From contig OZ024747.1 in the NCBI GenBank assembly GCA_964016885.1, forward strand, positions 76,632,001 through 76,696,000: 64,000 bases of DNA. Direction: 5' to 3'. The number at the start of each line of letters is the position of its first letter. Position 1 is the first letter of the stretch. Source of the stretch: Eledone cirrhosa. Lineage: Eukaryota. The notes under the pieces are model-generated. The model saw only the letters and a list, made by a program, of their open reading frames with translations. It was not told where the DNA came from and did not search any database. Below, piece after piece: positions 11,873-64,000 of the stretch. The position numbers were made by a program, and so were the translations under genes.

Positions 11873-11975
11873 TGTATGCACAAATAGATAGCTAGCTAGA
11901 TAGTTATATGTAGGTTTGTAGGTGTGTATATATATATATAAGAAGAAATTAAAAGATGGTTAAAAAAGTTCCATG

Positions 11976-12046
11976 TATTTTATTATGCGTATTTCAAAAA
12001 CAAATATCATCTTGGGACGATATTTGCGTTGTCATCAGATAAAATA
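11976..12046 (-). ncRNA. Type I hammerhead ribozyme in a short (TA)n-flanked element (11941-12110)
   Basis: Reverse complement: tattttat-CTGATGA-caacgcaaatatcgtc..gatgatatttgttttt-GAAA-tacgca-TA-ataaaata. Sister copy at 61655-61725. Confidence 0.75.
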
Positions 12047-12326
12047 GGGAGACATGATATGATGCTTAAAAAAAACACTTGTGAGGTGAACAAGGTAGTG
12101 TCTAATCAACATATATATATATATATATATATATATATATATATATATATATATATATATATATATATATCCAGTGAGTGTAACTTGGAGTTACTGTAGG
12201 TTCACCCGGGTGAGCACTCGATGTTTAGGTTCACTTCAGTGTCGAGGTGTAGAGCAAAGCAAAGTGTATTATAGTGAAATAAAATAACAAGGACGATTGG
12301 TTACTCCTTCATTACGTTTATTGGTT

Positions 12327-12413
12327 GGTGACGCGCATTTCGCCACTGATCAGCTCAAGGTTCGATCTGTATCGATCTGACCCGACTCTGTAATCCGCGG
12401 CTCGTCAGACCCC
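12327..12413 (-). ncRNA. Type I hammerhead ribozyme with long stem II in element 12171-12430
   Basis: Reverse complement: ggggt-CTGACGA-gcc...ggc-GAAAtgcgcGTC-acc, followed by AATAAA. Confidence 0.7.
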
Positions 12414-13163
12414 TTGTAATGGTAATGGAAAAAAAAAAAAATATATATATATATATATATATATATATATATATATATATATATATATATATATATATAT
12501 ATATATATATATATATATGCTCTAGCGAGATATAGGAAATCTATTTTCTATAATCTCGGTTGCTCACAATCACTCAGTCAATAAGATAGTTTGAACGTCT
12601 CAGTACAGACATCGGTCCATGCAAGAACAGACTGCATTGACAGTGGCGGAATAAGTGCATCTATGCATGCTATATCTACAATGATTCGTCAGCAGATATT
12701 TATAAATGGTAGTATGTTAGGATGTTTATTGTCACAGTGATGTATTACTGAATAGGGCGGTGTAATTTATTCTTTTACGTACAGAATGGGAACATGTCAC
12801 GTCCCAATTAAAGGAGATTGATTAGGTTCGGTTCAACAAAGGATCATCAATTCTACACATGGTCATTCGAGCTGAAAGATAGGTTTGTGTGTTACAGTTT
12901 TCTTTAATTATCCCTTCTTAAAATATTAGATAAATACAGATATATTTATATACAAAGACATACACATACATTACCAAAGGTACATACACATACAAACAGA
13001 CACATACATATATATATACACACATACAAACAGACACATACATATACACATACATACAAACAGACAGATACACATACAAACAGACACATACACATATACA
13101 CAAAGGTTTCAGACGATCAAACACAAGATCACATACATCCACATGAACATACAAACAACCAAG

Positions 13164-13610
13164 CATACATACATACATACATACATACATACATACATAC
13201 ATACATACATACATACACACACACATACATACATACATACATACATACATACATACATACATACATACATACACACATACATACATACATACATACATAC
13301 ATACATACATACATACATATATGTACATACATACAGACAGACAGACAGACATACATACATACATACATACATACAGACAGACAGACAGACAGACAGACAT
13401 ACATACATACATACATACATACATACAGACAGACAGACATACATGCATACATACAGACAGACAGACATATACATGCATATATATACATACATACATATAT
13501 ATATACATACATACATATGCATACAAACATTCATACATACATATATATATACATACATATATACATACTTATATACATATATACATACATACATATATAC
13601 ATATATACAT
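13164..13610. repeat. (ATAC)n/(AGAC)n microsatellite
   Basis: Direct inspection. Confidence 0.95.
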
Positions 13611-14770
13611 AAATGAGGCTATTATATAGTTTAAATTTCGTTAATGTGCTAACAACAGCGAAAAATCAATTAGAAGGAGGTATAGAAATCTAATATACAG
13701 CAACATATTGTGGATGTATTTCATTGATATATATATAATGATTAATATGTAGCTTGACTAAACACACACACACATACACAGACAGACACAGACACACACA
13801 CATACATACACACATACACACACACACATATATATATATATATATATATATATATATATATATTATTTTAATAAATTAATATATATATATAGTGGAAAAT
13901 GAAGGAAATTCCATTGATATATATATAATTATATATATATATATATATATATATATATATATAAATATATATTTATATACATATTTGTGTGCGTGTGAGT
14001 GTGAACAGGCGTGTGTACTTGTATGTATGTGCGTGTGTGCGCGAGTGTGTGTATCTGTGAGAGCGTGTAATACAAAATTGATTGTAATTTCCAGGTGGTT
14101 TTCACAAGACAAGCGAAGTAGGCAATAAAGTCGAAAGTTCTATTTATTAAAACAAAAGCCATGGAAATATTCTTTATGAAAACGTTATAGAGAATGTTAA
14201 ATGAAACTTCCTTCTCTTTGTATTATGACTTCTATTCAGTATTTTAAATTATTAACAGAGCGTAGAGTTCAAATTCCATATAAATTCGTTATTTTTTTCT
14301 TCAGGTCTTTAATTAACTCTGTCTTCAGCATAATCAACGTTATGTTGGAGGTTTGCAATGATTTATTGAGGAGTATTGTACTTGATATCGGCGAAGAGGT
14401 TCTGTGACTAGGCAGCAAATATGCTGATTAGTTAGAATTTTTGTCAAAATATGTTGCAGTATTTGTGTCGGGCCTCTGTATTTTGAGTTCACATCTCACT
14501 AAAGACGACTGTGCCCATCACTTGAGAGTGGGGGGTCCCACGAAGAAATAACTTACGAATCAATGGTGGTGGATTGGTAGAATTAGTATAGCGTCGGACT
14601 TGATACGAGGTGGTATCTGTTCTGGAAGGCCATTACTAGAAATCCCATATGTTATTAAATAGTATGGGTTGTCGTCCCAATATGTAAAGTAAACAACTAA
14701 TTTGGGTTTTGTAAAAAATCAACGGAAACAACCTAGAAAATTTACTGATTTTCCATACACATCCACCCGA

Positions 14771-15100
14771 TCCCGCGTATTCCAACCCACTCCACCCCAC
14801 GTATTCCACACCCACCTCAGCCCCGCGTATTCCAACCCACTCCACCCCACGTATTCCGCACCCACCTCAGCCCCGCGTATTCCAACCCACTCTCCCCCAC
14901 GTATTCCACACCCACCTCAGCCCCGCGTATTCCAACCCACTCCACCCCACGTATTCCACACCCACGTCAGCCCCGCGTATTCCAACCCACTCCACCCCAC
15001 GTATTCCACACCCACCTCAGCCCCGCGTTTTCCACCCCACTTCACCCCACGTATTCCACACCCACCTCAGCCCCGCGTTTTCCACCCCACTTCACCACAC
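14771..15100. repeat. 50-bp C-rich minisatellite, about 6.5 copies
   Basis: Unit ccccgcgtattccaacccactccaccccacgtattccacacccacctcag. Confidence 0.93.
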
Positions 15101-61099: not shown

Positions 61100-61165
61100 C
61101 ATGACACGTGTTTCGTTATCGATCACGATCAGGTCTGACTCTGTAATCGATAACTCATCAGCATG
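61100..61165 (-). ncRNA. Hammerhead motif related to 12327-12413
   Basis: Reverse complement: CTGATGA-gttatcgat...atcgataac-GAAAC(acgt)GTC, then AATAAA. It shares gattacagagtc in the stem II region with the 12.3-kb copy. Confidence 0.65.
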
Positions 61166-61654
61166 GCCAACCCTTAATCATCCATACAACATTATTTATG
61201 CATGTGGTATAGACCAGTTAATCTAGTATTTCCCTAACTCTCTCTACCAAGACAGACCGAATCACACTGTATTAGTGTTAGAACTAATTAGTACCAGAAC
61301 GTGAAAGTCACACATTTTGAAAATAGACTTTGTAAATTTCTGCATATAAGGAACTTTAATTTCCCTGCTTCAATACCGAGTGAATAAGCAAGATTGTTAA
61401 TGGCTTAATGGTGCTGAAATACTGACATATTTAGTGTTCTCAAACGGGACTGAGGTTGCTGTTACATGAACACAGTATAGAATATTAACAGCTTTACTTA
61501 AAAGTGTTTATTATATATTAACATATTGTATATACTTCCATATACTGAATCAGATTTTGTTGTCCCTTCTGTATGTATGTGTGTATATATATATATATAT
61601 ATATATATATATATATATAGGAAGAAATTAAAAGATGGTTAAAAAAAATCCATG

Positions 61655-61725
61655 TATTTTATTATGCGCATTTCAAAAACGAATATCATCCAGGTACGAT
61701 ATTTGCGTTCTCATCAGATAAAATA
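61655..61725 (-). ncRNA. Type I hammerhead, same family as 11976
   Basis: Reverse complement: tattttat-CTGATGA-gaacgcaaatatcgt..atgatattcgttttt-GAAA-tgcgca-TA-ataaaata. Confidence 0.78.
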
Positions 61726-62308
61726 GGGAGACATGATATGAAGCTTAAAAAAAAACACTTGTGAGCAAGGTAGTGTCTAAACAACATATATATATATATA
61801 TATATATATATATATATATATATATATATATAGTAATAATAATAAATTTGAAGACTAAAATCCAAAGAGGGTTCGATAAGGATAAATATATATCAAATAT
61901 ATAAGAACCCGTTAAGGGTGAAAGCACCGATTCTTTGCTTAAAAACTTTAATCTGTTATTTTAATAAATATATATATACATATATATACATATATACAAA
62001 TATATATATATATATATATATATATATATATATATATATAAAAGGTGAGTAATATTGTAGAACAATAAAACTATGCATATATCAGATTAGTACCACTCAA
62101 CAGTTGGTAGAACTGGAGTATATATGATAAAGAAAAAATTTAAAGATGGTTAAAAGAGTTCAATATATTTTGTTATGCGCATTTCGAATACAAAATCATC
62201 CTGGGACAAAATAACTTAACGGTTCAAGTTTTTCCTGGATAGGAAAAAAAACTTGAACCATTAAGTTAATTTTTCCTGGTTATGTCAATATTTATAAAAC
62301 AAACTTTG

Positions 62309-62369
62309 TATTTTATCTGATGAGAGCGTACCAAAGTTTTGGTACCCTTGAAATATATATAATAGAATA
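62309..62369 (+). ncRNA. Type I hammerhead, same family as 26688
   Basis: tattttat-CTGATGA-gagcgtaccaaa(gt)tttggtaccctt-GAAA-tatata-TA-atagaata. Confidence 0.78.
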
Positions 62370-62831
62370 AATATGGTTTTATAAATATAGTTTCCATTTA
62401 TTTAATATCATTGAATATTATACTCCAGAAAACTTGTCGAGTGCTTTGAATCAGTTATAAACATCTATATTTGTTGAATTACCAACAAATTGAATATCCA
62501 TTTTGCTTATATATATATATATATATATATATATATATATATATATACACACACACACACACATAATTATATATATAAAAATATATATATATATTCATAT
62601 AAATATATATATAAATGAAATCGTGTGTCGAAACAAATATTGTTATACTTTGGGAGGGTCATATTGTTGTAATAATATTGCCAGAAATAATAACAGAACA
62701 CACTCACTGTTTGGTTGGTTTTCGCTTCTGTATCTTTTATATTTCCACAGTTAATTCATTTTGTCCTCAATGTTTATCATTGACTGACCAACGATCAAAA
62801 ATATAGATATAAATACATATATATATAGTCT

Positions 62832-62872
62832 AACAAAGTTCTTTCGTTGCACATCTGCAGCATCATCAGTGG
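62832..62872 (-). ncRNA. Hammerhead motif of the GAAAgaacTT family
   Basis: Reverse complement: acca-CTGATGA-tgctgca(gatg)tgcaac-GAAAgaacTT-tgtt. Confidence 0.55.
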
Positions 62873-64000
62873 TACTATTATGTTCCTCCTGTTGTACAAT
62901 ATATATATATATATATATATATATATATATATATATATATATATATATATATATATATATATATATATATATATGCACCTACTTGTGTCTGTGTACATGA
63001 ATGCTTGCATATATATAAATGTAAGTACAGTGCAGATTTGTGGCAGAATGTATGTGTGCATTAACATGTTTGTTTGTATATGTTTGTGTATATATATATA
63101 TATATATATGTGTGAGTGTGTGTGAGTATTTTTATACAGGCGTATGTATGTACGTTACATATCTACGAATGTATGTGTACATTAACATGTTTGTTTGTAT
63201 GTTTATGTATGTATGTTTATGTATGTATATATATATATATGTGTGTGTGCGTGTTAGTACATACCCAAGTGTACGTTATGAGTATTTCTATACAGACTTA
63301 TGTACGTTACATACCTACATCCCACATAGTCAAGTCAGCAATCTTCAACAATACGAATATTATTGCGACTCTCTGCAGTCAACACTATAATTACACAAAC
63401 CGTAATGAAACACTCGATACACGATTCTTCCTTGTTACAATTGTTGCTGATAGCTATGGCAATCATATCTATAGTTCACTTTTCTCAAGTGAATAGGAAT
63501 ACGGTTTATCATCTCAAATACTTACTACACTCCTATTATCATTTTTTTTTTCACATTCAGGAAAAACATTCACACAAATGTGTGTGTGTGTGTGTATATA
63601 TATATATATATATATATATATATATATATATATATATATATATATATATATATATGTATATATATGTATGTTTATATATATATATATATATATATATATA
63701 TATATATATATGTATGTATATATACATTATATATATATATATATATATATATACATATATATATATATACATTTATTTATATATATATTTATGTATATAT
63801 ATATACATATATATATATTTATGTGTATATATATATATATATATATATATTTATACATATATATCTAGTTAGGTATATATATACATATATATATATATAT
63901 ATATATATATATATATATATATATATATATATATATATATATATCCACCCTTCCCCTTTCCTCTTTCTTTCCTTCTGTATGTGTAAAGTGTGTGCAAGTG

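Follow-up and report, generated by a model that had tools for sequence, protein, structure and literature searches.

Minimal type-I hammerhead motifs in short (TA)n-abutting repeats of the Eledone cirrhosa genome, likely non-autonomous derivatives of Penelope-like elements

A stretch of 64,000 nucleotides of the Eledone cirrhosa genome (assembly GCA_964016885.1, contig OZ024747.1, positions 76,632,001 to 76,696,000 of the forward strand; hereafter the window) was examined for hammerhead ribozyme motifs carried by short repeats that abut (TA)n microsatellites. The window is AT-rich with abundant microsatellites, and runs of at least six TA units, (TA)≥6, make up 4.7% of it. A total of 51 copies of the core motif CUGANGA were counted, compared with 21.4 ± 4.4 in 100 shuffles, and 14 of the 51 are units of a 468-bp tandem array (27139-33897), which was excluded from the main count. 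The sites outside the array were found by printing each CUGANGA with its downstream GAAA. An earlier note on this DNA, made without database searches, had claimed about 15 motifs from nine to ten sequence families, and all 16 coordinates that it listed are the low-coordinate ends of CUGANGA...GAAA stretches, which sort by sequence into nine families (A to I). Fourteen of these sites, belonging to eight families (A to F, H and I), display the layout of a minimal type-I hammerhead, so the claim stands except for the two sites of family G. The CUGANGA...GAA core with A15.1-U16.1 and an H17 other than G is present at every one of the 14 sites. The palindromic helix III sequences quoted in the note were all recovered, namely atgcgcat (A), acacgtgt (B), atatatat (C), acgtacgt (D) and atgatcat (E). 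The 14 motifs are as follows.

11970-12047, minus strand: family A hammerhead motif, decayed; helix III ATACGCAT with one mismatch, first helix II base changed; nearest 3′-side (TA)n at 11927-11940.
12321-12416, minus strand: family B hammerhead motif; core intact, helix II long, helix III AUGCGCGU, H17 C, helix I of 3 bp; carrier of about 270 bp between (TA)n at 12111-12170 and 12441-12518.
18187-18311, plus strand: family D hammerhead motif; helix III ACGUACGU, H17 A, helix I of 3 bp; 5′-terminal in a unit of about 345 bp ending ...AACCAAT at (TA)n 18501-18524.
19552-19617, plus strand: family E hammerhead motif; helix III AUGAUCAU, H17 A, helix I of 4 bp, seven of eight helix II positions paired after a U/U mismatch; (TA)n at 19497-19511 and 19813-19859.
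26363-26406, minus strand: family H motif, decayed, with a broken helix II.
26687-26755, plus strand: family C hammerhead motif within an inverted twin; helix I of 7-8 bp, helix III AUAUAUAU, H17 A.
33997-34040, minus strand: family H motif; helix II GGGC/GCCC, a compensated form of the GGAC/GUCC of other copies; helices I and III poor.
56387-56436, plus strand: family F′ motif; unpaired U, a perfect 6-bp helix II and then GAAAGAACUU; helix I weak.
56600-56681, plus strand: family I motif, decayed, with the 3′ strand of helix I lost.
60472-60522, minus strand: family F hammerhead; CUGAAGA, unpaired G, 6-bp helix II, H17 U, 4-bp helix I.
61094-61169, minus strand: family B motif; helix II of 12 bp, helix III ACACGUGU, 5′ strand of helix I replaced.
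61649-61726, minus strand: family A hammerhead motif, better formed than any other in the window; helix I of 8 bp, helix III AUGCGCAU, H17 A; element 5′-truncated, between (TA)n at 61584-61619 and 61786-61832.
62308-62371, plus strand: family C hammerhead motif; (TA)n at 62000-62040 and 62508-62547.
62828-62877, minus strand: family F′ motif, decayed; (TA)n adjoins it on both sides, at 62817-62827 and 62899-62974.

Upstream of the family B motif at 61094-61169 the sequence is unlike that of other family B copies. Ahead of the family C motif at 62308-62371 lie a 3′ end that resembles that of family A, in inverted orientation, and a spacer (about 62210-62270) that is itself a near-perfect hairpin. 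Genomic copies of family H contain an unpaired A, helix II GGAC/GUCC and then helix III ACGU, while copies of family I in two sampled loci (L070 and L085) carry GCUGU/ACAGC and AUAUAUAU.

The quality of the motifs was assessed with a type-I descriptor that asks for six helix I positions flanking the core, CUGANGA, GAA, an H17 that is not G, a helix II of 6-109 nt with paired closing positions (one unpaired base tolerated) and a helix III of 6-10 nt formed by an A...U stretch pairing with itself. As the chance control, 200 dinucleotide-preserving shuffles of the window with the array cut out were searched likewise, a kind of control that the earlier note had proposed for a genome-wide scan and that here came out in favor of its motifs. 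The moderate descriptor gave six matches in the window (shuffle mean 0.075, maximum 1), the strict descriptor three (mean 0, maximum 0) and the relaxed descriptor 12 (mean 0.6, maximum 5). Two of the relaxed matches, at 39003 (plus) and 44781 (minus), which are absent from the list of the earlier note, look like chance matches. Only three window copies, at 61717 (minus), 26696 (plus) and 62317 (plus), pass the strict descriptor, and four others, at 12408 (minus), 18195 (plus), 19560 (plus) and 60514 (minus), are plausible, with an intact core and a helix I of 3-4 bp. The remaining seven, at 12038 (minus), 61161 (minus), 56395 (plus), 62869 (minus), 26398 (minus), 34032 (minus) and 56608 (plus), are decayed, with better copies of their families elsewhere in the genome. 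Judging from their sequences, most of the window copies are decayed and probably inactive. Three read sets that might be RNA matched the window in low-complexity pieces of 20-30 nt only; one DNA-like set covered it, with contig depths that do not amount to copy numbers.

Pairing of the helices was examined in 47 distinct candidates from the window and from 400 kb of random genome, which had been chosen by the core and a perfect helix III only. Six of six helix I pairs were formed in register in 13 of the 47 candidates, compared with 0, 1, 5, 1, 0 and 0 in six controls with a slid 3′ strand, and at least three of four closing pairs of helix II were formed in 27 of 47 candidates versus 12 of 47 in the control. 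Helix I differs among the families and still pairs, as in UUUUAU/AUAAAA, AUAUUG/CAAUAU, ACGUGU/ACACGU, ACCGUC/GACGGU and ACUUUC/GGAAGU. Complementary helix I strands that are unlike from family to family amount, at the level of sequence, to covariation between families. In RNAcofold predictions the helix III duplex forms between two copies, with a dimer of the family A motif at 61717 at −35.9 kcal/mol versus −21.6 kcal/mol for two monomers, and the motifs of families B and D and of the array dimerize likewise.

The earlier note had described the density of motifs around this locus as unusual. A random sample of 40 stretches of 10 kb (400 kb), drawn by script from eight large contigs, contained 22 matches to the moderate descriptor (5.5 per 100 kb, in 12 of the 40 stretches), 10 to the strict descriptor (2.5 per 100 kb, in six stretches) and 36 to the relaxed descriptor (9.0 per 100 kb, in 18 stretches). 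The window minus the array holds six, three and 12 such matches in 57.2 kb, about twice the density of the random genome, and since these counts are small the twofold difference is not a clear excess and not special to the window. The density of hammerheads is thus a property of the whole genome and not of this locus. This removes the claim of a local peculiarity and bears out the other suggestion of the note, that of a very large genome-wide ribozyme load. Extrapolated with the moderate descriptor from 400 kb to the genome size used here (3.0 Gb), the sample corresponds to about 10^5 motifs, with a Poisson range of about 1.0-2.5 × 10^5, and the exact 34-nt core of family F (one two-fold degenerate position) alone was found in 11,191 genome copies, with none for the reversed control. 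The genome of the axolotl, used below for comparison, measures 32 Gb. The available parts of the published surveys give about 2,000 plus 1,300 minimal motifs in Schistosoma, 4,000 in the coelacanth and 9,000 in Xenopus tropicalis (PMC4209133), as well as about 5,000 in a mussel and up to 120,000 retrozyme copies in the axolotl (PMC7229834). Roughly compared, as descriptors differ among studies, the estimate of about 10^5 is several-fold to more than ten times the published totals of similar or smaller genomes and more than ten times the retrozyme density per Mb in the axolotl.

A polyadenylation hexamer often follows the motifs. AATAAA lies within about 30 nt past the predicted cleavage site in nine of the 14 window motifs against a background of 3.4%, so that its frequent presence, as the earlier note had it, was observed for many and not for all of them. 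In the two family A copies the hexamer begins at H17 itself. In the random genome sample AATAAA stands close behind the cleavage site in four of 14 motifs, against a background of 2.8%. When 21 distinct motif types from the window and from 75 loci (L051-L125) were sorted by helix III, AATAAA was found to start between H17 and +6 in eight of the 10 types whose palindromic helix III has 8 nt and in none of the 11 types with a helix III of 4, 6 or 10 nt, including the array type and a type located downstream of open reading frames (ORFs). The main texts of PMC4209133, PMC8557442, PMC7229834 and PMC2377424, as far as available, make no mention of a link between AATAAA and the cleavage site, and a literature search combining Penelope-like elements, hammerheads and the polyadenylation signal returned one review only, in whose available part the signal appears in the context of the Clec2 3′ untranslated region (UTR). 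The combination of an 8-nt helix III with an adjacent AATAAA may therefore be a previously undescribed detail. The hexamer is not simply the end mark of the copied RNA, because family D continues for nearly 200 nt beyond it.

The carriers of these motifs are short repeats with defined ends at (TA)n. For family A, with 833 first-look candidates, the unit measures about 530 bp (none of 29 other copies is longer), the hammerhead lies about 55 nt from the 3′ end, and this end, ...TTCTTC(T/C)TA followed by (TA)n, was seen in 30 of 30 copies examined, that of the window included. Family D, with 447 first-look candidates at 97-99% identity, has a unit of about 345 bp that starts about 7 nt before CUGAUGA and ends with AACCAAT and (TA)n in the window copy and in nine of 10 genomic copies, the tenth being truncated; a head-to-head inverted partner accompanies five of the 10 copies and (TA)n lies on the 5′ side of three. 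Given this identity, family D appears from its sequence to be recently active. What the copies of family B have in common is only the hammerhead of about 85 nt together with the next 65 nt or so, with identities of 68-88%. Families C and F are present in the window as inverted twins.

26485-26601 and 26671-26787: family C head-to-head inverted twin; arms 97% complementary, 69-nt spacer at 26602-26670; core of the mirror copy mutated, (TA)n at 26888-26939.
60375-60541 and 60611-60777: family F head-to-head inverted twin; arms 87% complementary, 69-nt spacer at 60542-60610.

Other genomic copies of family C are also twins, so that the twin may be a heritable form of the element. Overall, the 14 motifs stand as singles or in inverted twins and never in head-to-tail tandem, and for 13 of them a (TA)≥6 run is reached no more than 306 nt past the core, in line with the earlier note, which had called most of the elements bounded by (TA)n. 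The share of random positions with a (TA)≥6 run is 26% for a distance of up to 250 nt and 37% for one of up to 450 nt. In the random genome sample a downstream (TA)n was found for 10 of 14 motifs, against a background of 22.5%. Runs of (TA)≥6 occupy 5.7% of the 400 kb of random genome; should Penelope-type insertions depend on such tracts as well as flank them, elements and microsatellites might reinforce each other.

Proteins of the Penelope type are abundant in this genome. A search with PF01541 (GIY-YIG) returned 10,596 first-look candidates, and all 150 that were scored pass the cut-off. Three ORFs of 938, 636 and 551 aa combine a C-terminal GIY-YIG domain above the cut-off with RVT_1 at E of about 1e-6, and their nearest protein-atlas clusters are HTH_animal/DUF8422/GIY-YIG/RVT_1 (score 0.95). 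In the related copies L074, L075 and L078, KCND(N/S)RCGTCQ forms a C-x4-C-x2-C linker before the GIY-YIG core, and a hammerhead, UGAAC CUGAAGA ... GAA AGUACU U GUUCA, follows 384-408 nt past the stop; (TA)n comes next after this hammerhead in L074 and L078.

From these observations it is likely that 14 of the 16 sites are minimal type-I hammerheads in non-coding repeats abutting (TA)n, and that these repeats are non-autonomous Penelope-like derivatives copied in trans. A hammerhead-bearing terminal region, inverted or partial copies and insertion at (TA)n, which are features of such derivatives, were all found, and the Penelope-derived, TA-targeting reading of the earlier note is supported in that the layout matches the literature on Penelope elements and that ORFs with reverse transcriptase (RT) and GIY-YIG are abundant; mobilization by Penelope-like elements is what we infer from this agreement. 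Since the window contains no Penelope coding remnant, the carriers would be non-autonomous derivatives resembling short interspersed nuclear elements (SINEs) and not truncated full elements. Extension in the 5′ direction, by which the earlier note had expected to reach Penelope ORFs, ended for families A and D at about 530 and 345 bp with no ORF reached.

According to the proposed mechanism, autonomous Penelope-like elements elsewhere in the genome would supply RT and GIY-YIG endonuclease in trans. The endonuclease would nick (TA)n, perhaps through the C-x4-C-x2-C linker; the available text of Craig et al. 2021 (PMC8557442) tentatively ties the linker of Neptune, Nematis and Naiad to (TA)n targeting. 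The RT would then copy the RNA of the short element at the (TA)n nick, and priming on both strands would generate inverted twins with their 3′ ends facing outward. With a palindromic helix III of only 4-8 nt, the ribozymes would cleave after H17 mainly once two copies pair their helix III, either through a tandem arrangement or at a high RNA level. A dimer model for minimal hammerheads and their low in vitro activity are described in the parts of Cervera and De la Pena 2014 (PMC4209133) at hand, and Frangieh et al. (PMC11167929), in the portion available, report insertion in vitro with no need of cleavage and no reads ending at the cleavage site.

Several results weigh against this interpretation. 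The window contains no Penelope ORF or remnant (tblastn with four ORFs, E ≤ 1e-3), its sole long ORFs being those of two long interspersed nuclear elements (LINEs). The RVT_1 scores of three ORFs, 27.6-28.9 bits, fall just below the Pfam cut-off of 29.6, the arrangement of an ORF with a downstream hammerhead was seen in only three of 15 sampled loci, and around the Penelope-type ORFs of L071, L072, L073 and L076 CUGANGA is absent from 900 nt ahead of the start to 1200 nt past the end. No autonomous partner sharing its termini with any of the window families was identified. A BLAST comparison of the window families with 35 GIY-YIG loci gave many copies of the short families nearby, none of them clearly continuous with an ORF, and is uninformative because these families occur everywhere. 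Rfam was searched with the gathering score and with E ≤ 10, using both the complete window and 3.7 kb of excerpts around the motifs; no hammerhead model (clan CL00010) reached its gathering score, and no copy outside the array was called. The restricted 3.7-kb search recovered HH9 on the array unit, at 37.7 bits against a cut-off of 52, and, apart from it, only a partial Hammerhead_1 match on a family B copy (16 bits, E 5.7). Most of the low-score Rfam matches come from miRNA models that align to hairpins of microsatellites. The scores of the hammerhead models may be lowered by the long inserts in helix II and by the absence of a helix III hairpin. The canonical G10.1-C11.1 pair is absent in several families, being G.U in A, A-U in C and U/U in D, E and I. 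Covariation within a family was assessed in B, the only divergent family that could be aligned by sequence alone (15 of 23 rows; four short and four 5′-truncated rows were left out), where 80.6% of the helix cells are paired versus 20-39% with slid strands. This covariation does not rise above shuffles, since 80.6% pairing is attained in 70 of 500 and the covariation score in 94 of 500, and the variation inside the family looks like copy decay and not like selection. The stem covariation whose absence, by the earlier note, would refute its reading was seen between families, where helix I pairs despite unrelated sequences, and did not exceed shuffles inside family B.

A first alternative is that the dispersed motifs represent single or fragmentary units of retrozymes without long terminal repeats (non-LTR retrozymes), which would spread via small circular RNAs. 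The window itself contains a tandem array with one hammerhead per 468-bp unit, in two blocks.

27139-30377, minus strand: 468-bp tandem array, block 1, 6.9 units.
30396-33897, plus strand: 468-bp tandem array, block 2, 7.5 units.

The blocks, with 99-100% matches, lie in opposite orientation and meet head-to-head near 30377-30396, and each of the 14 units carries the type-I hammerhead AUAUUG CUGAUGA GUUGUAACAACAAC GAA ACUAGU U CAAUAU. By its sequence the array looks like one of non-LTR retrozymes. Hammerhead-bearing tandem or paired repeats were also noticed at L081:8168-9653, L125:3561-4230 and in L102; a sampled-locus repeat with a period of about 490-510 has ACGGUG CUGAUGA UAGCUAACAAGCUU GAA ACUAGU A CAUCGU, and another sampled-locus hammerhead type has a 10-nt helix III, ACUAAUUAGU. 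Arrays similar to that of the window in sampled loci, such as L081 (period about 490-510) and L125, lend the retrozyme explanation some weight, and a 2026 preprint (10.64898/2026.07.22.740005) argues, in its available part, that retrozymes are themselves non-autonomous Penelope-like derivatives, so that the two readings overlap. Even so, we regard it as improbable for the dispersed motifs: none of the 14 lies in head-to-tail tandem repeats of 150-450 bp, the 3′ ends of families A and D are fixed at (TA)n and their units have a defined length, and hammerheads of the array type belong to a class of their own, in which helix III measures 6 nt and AATAAA is missing (0 of 11 types, versus 8 of 10 dispersed types with an 8-nt helix III).

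Mobilization by the LINEs of the genome, with the carriers as SINE-like hammerhead elements comparable to Sm-alpha, would agree with elements that are short, non-coding and very numerous, and with the presence in the window of two LINEs whose long ORFs encode endonuclease and RT domains.

7761-11222, minus strand: LINE copy; long ORF with Exo_endo_phos, RVT_1 and zf-RVT.
39863-45465, plus strand: LINE copy; long ORF with Exo_endo_phos, RVT_1 and zf-RVT; upstream of it a 715-aa ORF1 that contains a CCHC knuckle.

These two LINE ORFs are 1153 and 1204 aa long, and their tails are AATAAA and then A-rich or (ATT)n. We consider this explanation very improbable, since LINE tails consist of AATAAA followed by (ATT)n or A-rich sequence and not of (TA)n, whereas the 3′ ends of the short elements lie flush against (TA)n and lack any A-rich or (ATT)n tail. 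The accessible text of PMC8557442, moreover, reports inverted twins and targeting of (TA)n as hallmarks of Penelope-like elements.

That the motifs are mere chance matches in AT-rich, microsatellite-rich DNA has next to no probability, for although family G and the matches at 39003 and 44781 look random and Rfam models find nothing outside the array, this explanation is contradicted for 14 of the 16 sites, and holds for family G only, by the excess over shuffles, the in-register pairing of helix I, the recurrence of the motifs as repeat families with a common layout and their replication in the independent 400-kb sample. Family G is represented by two sites.

20435-20585, plus strand: family G, SINE-like repeat copy; CUGAUGA and GAAAC present, no (TA)n nearby.
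23624-23774, minus strand: family G, second, inverted copy; 77% complementary to 20435-20585.

As a hammerhead of type I or III, family G was rejected by eye in an alignment of 11 rows, having neither a helix I partner nor a core-adjacent helix II. Its copies share the CUGAGGA and GAAAC boxes, with no U-H site with a matching helix I, and belong to a repeat of about 230-300 bp (2,278 first-look candidates, 74-81% identity). In the window the two copies of this repeat, 20403-20634 and 23530-23830, are inverted and 77% complementary; many differences between copies are located at CpG sites.

Two further repeats were observed in the window. A palindromic element of about 230 bp at 17759-17988 consists of (CT)n(TA)n(AG)n enclosed by unique inverted arms of about 50 nt; several miRNA models of plants score it high, though below threshold (at most 97 bits, with a cut-off of 200), matches that are surely false, and it may be a foldback element or one like a miniature inverted-repeat transposable element (MITE). 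A 15-bp minisatellite (TTGACCTGGGAGTAT) at 24553-25295 comprises 49.5 copies with 89% matches and lies in a region of strong GC skew.

With the 14 motifs read as hammerheads of non-autonomous Penelope-like derivatives, the minimal-hammerhead system of Penelope-like elements as such is already known and would not surprise a specialist; what is notable are the numbers and the AAUAAA module. A genome in which self-cleaving ribozyme motifs, as predicted from sequence, would form a bulk component is suited to asking what the hammerheads of the Penelope type do, with families that are short and apparently recently active, such as D, and the inverted twins in (TA)n bear on the mechanism of integration. 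Minimal hammerheads missed by curated covariance models were, besides, recognizable to a reader working with no tools. The hammerhead-AAUAAA module suggests a testable link from ribozyme cleavage to 3′-end formation. A bolder proposal, which we hold to be rather doubtful, is that the genome carries about 100,000 hammerhead motifs (about one per 20 kb) and that the dispersed class with an 8-nt palindromic helix III is a fixed module of hammerhead, 4-7-nt helix I and AAUAAA acting as a switch of RNA fate. If true, cleavage would take place just upstream of the element's own hexamer, and polyadenylated versus processed, tail-less element RNA would be alternative fates.

Comparison was made with known systems, of which the minimal hammerheads of Penelope-like elements, on which PMC6765202 lists Lunse et al. 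2016 as a reference, share most of the layout. As described in the available text of PMC4209133, they have the same type-I layout with a short palindromic helix III that needs a second copy, the same long helix II and 4-5-bp helix I, the same unpaired base before helix II (here in families F, F′ and H), and likewise many families per genome, with most copies single and truncated and some in close opposite-strand pairs. They differ in number, with about 2,000-9,000 per genome there and 11,191 exact copies of one core here, in the U/U, G.U or A-U that replaces G10.1-C11.1 in several of our families, and in the AATAAA directly behind the cleavage site, which that part of the paper does not mention.

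Neptune, Nematis and Naiad, according to the accessible part of PMC8557442 (and Arkhipova 2006 as cited there), share the type of linker, CX2-5CxxC there and C-x4-C-x2-C here, as well as (TA)n targets at the ends and inverted, 5′-truncated partner copies; pseudo-LTRs are described there too. The elements of the window are, in contrast, non-coding. Non-LTR retrozymes, in the available portions of PMC7229834 and of Li et al. (2026 preprint), are equally non-autonomous and AT-rich with type-I hammerheads, and occur alongside Penelope-like elements; they form tandem arrays (PMC7229834), whereas the 14 motifs are dispersed singles or inverted twins. The 468-bp array of the window fits the retrozyme kind.

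Sm-alpha and Sj-alpha, SINE-like elements of schistosomes, are short, very numerous and non-coding, with one canonical hammerhead each. The available parts of PMC4209133 and PMC6765202 name these elements; the hammerheads of the present families differ from theirs in being minimal, in their tie to (TA)n and in their frequent arrangement as inverted twins. Finally, the discontinuous hammerhead of mammalian Clec2 3′ UTRs (PMC6765202, as far as available) likewise has its cleavage site just upstream of a polyadenylation hexamer; it is a split ribozyme that regulates a host gene, whereas in Eledone cirrhosa the pairing of a hammerhead with a putative polyadenylation hexamer resides in mobile elements.

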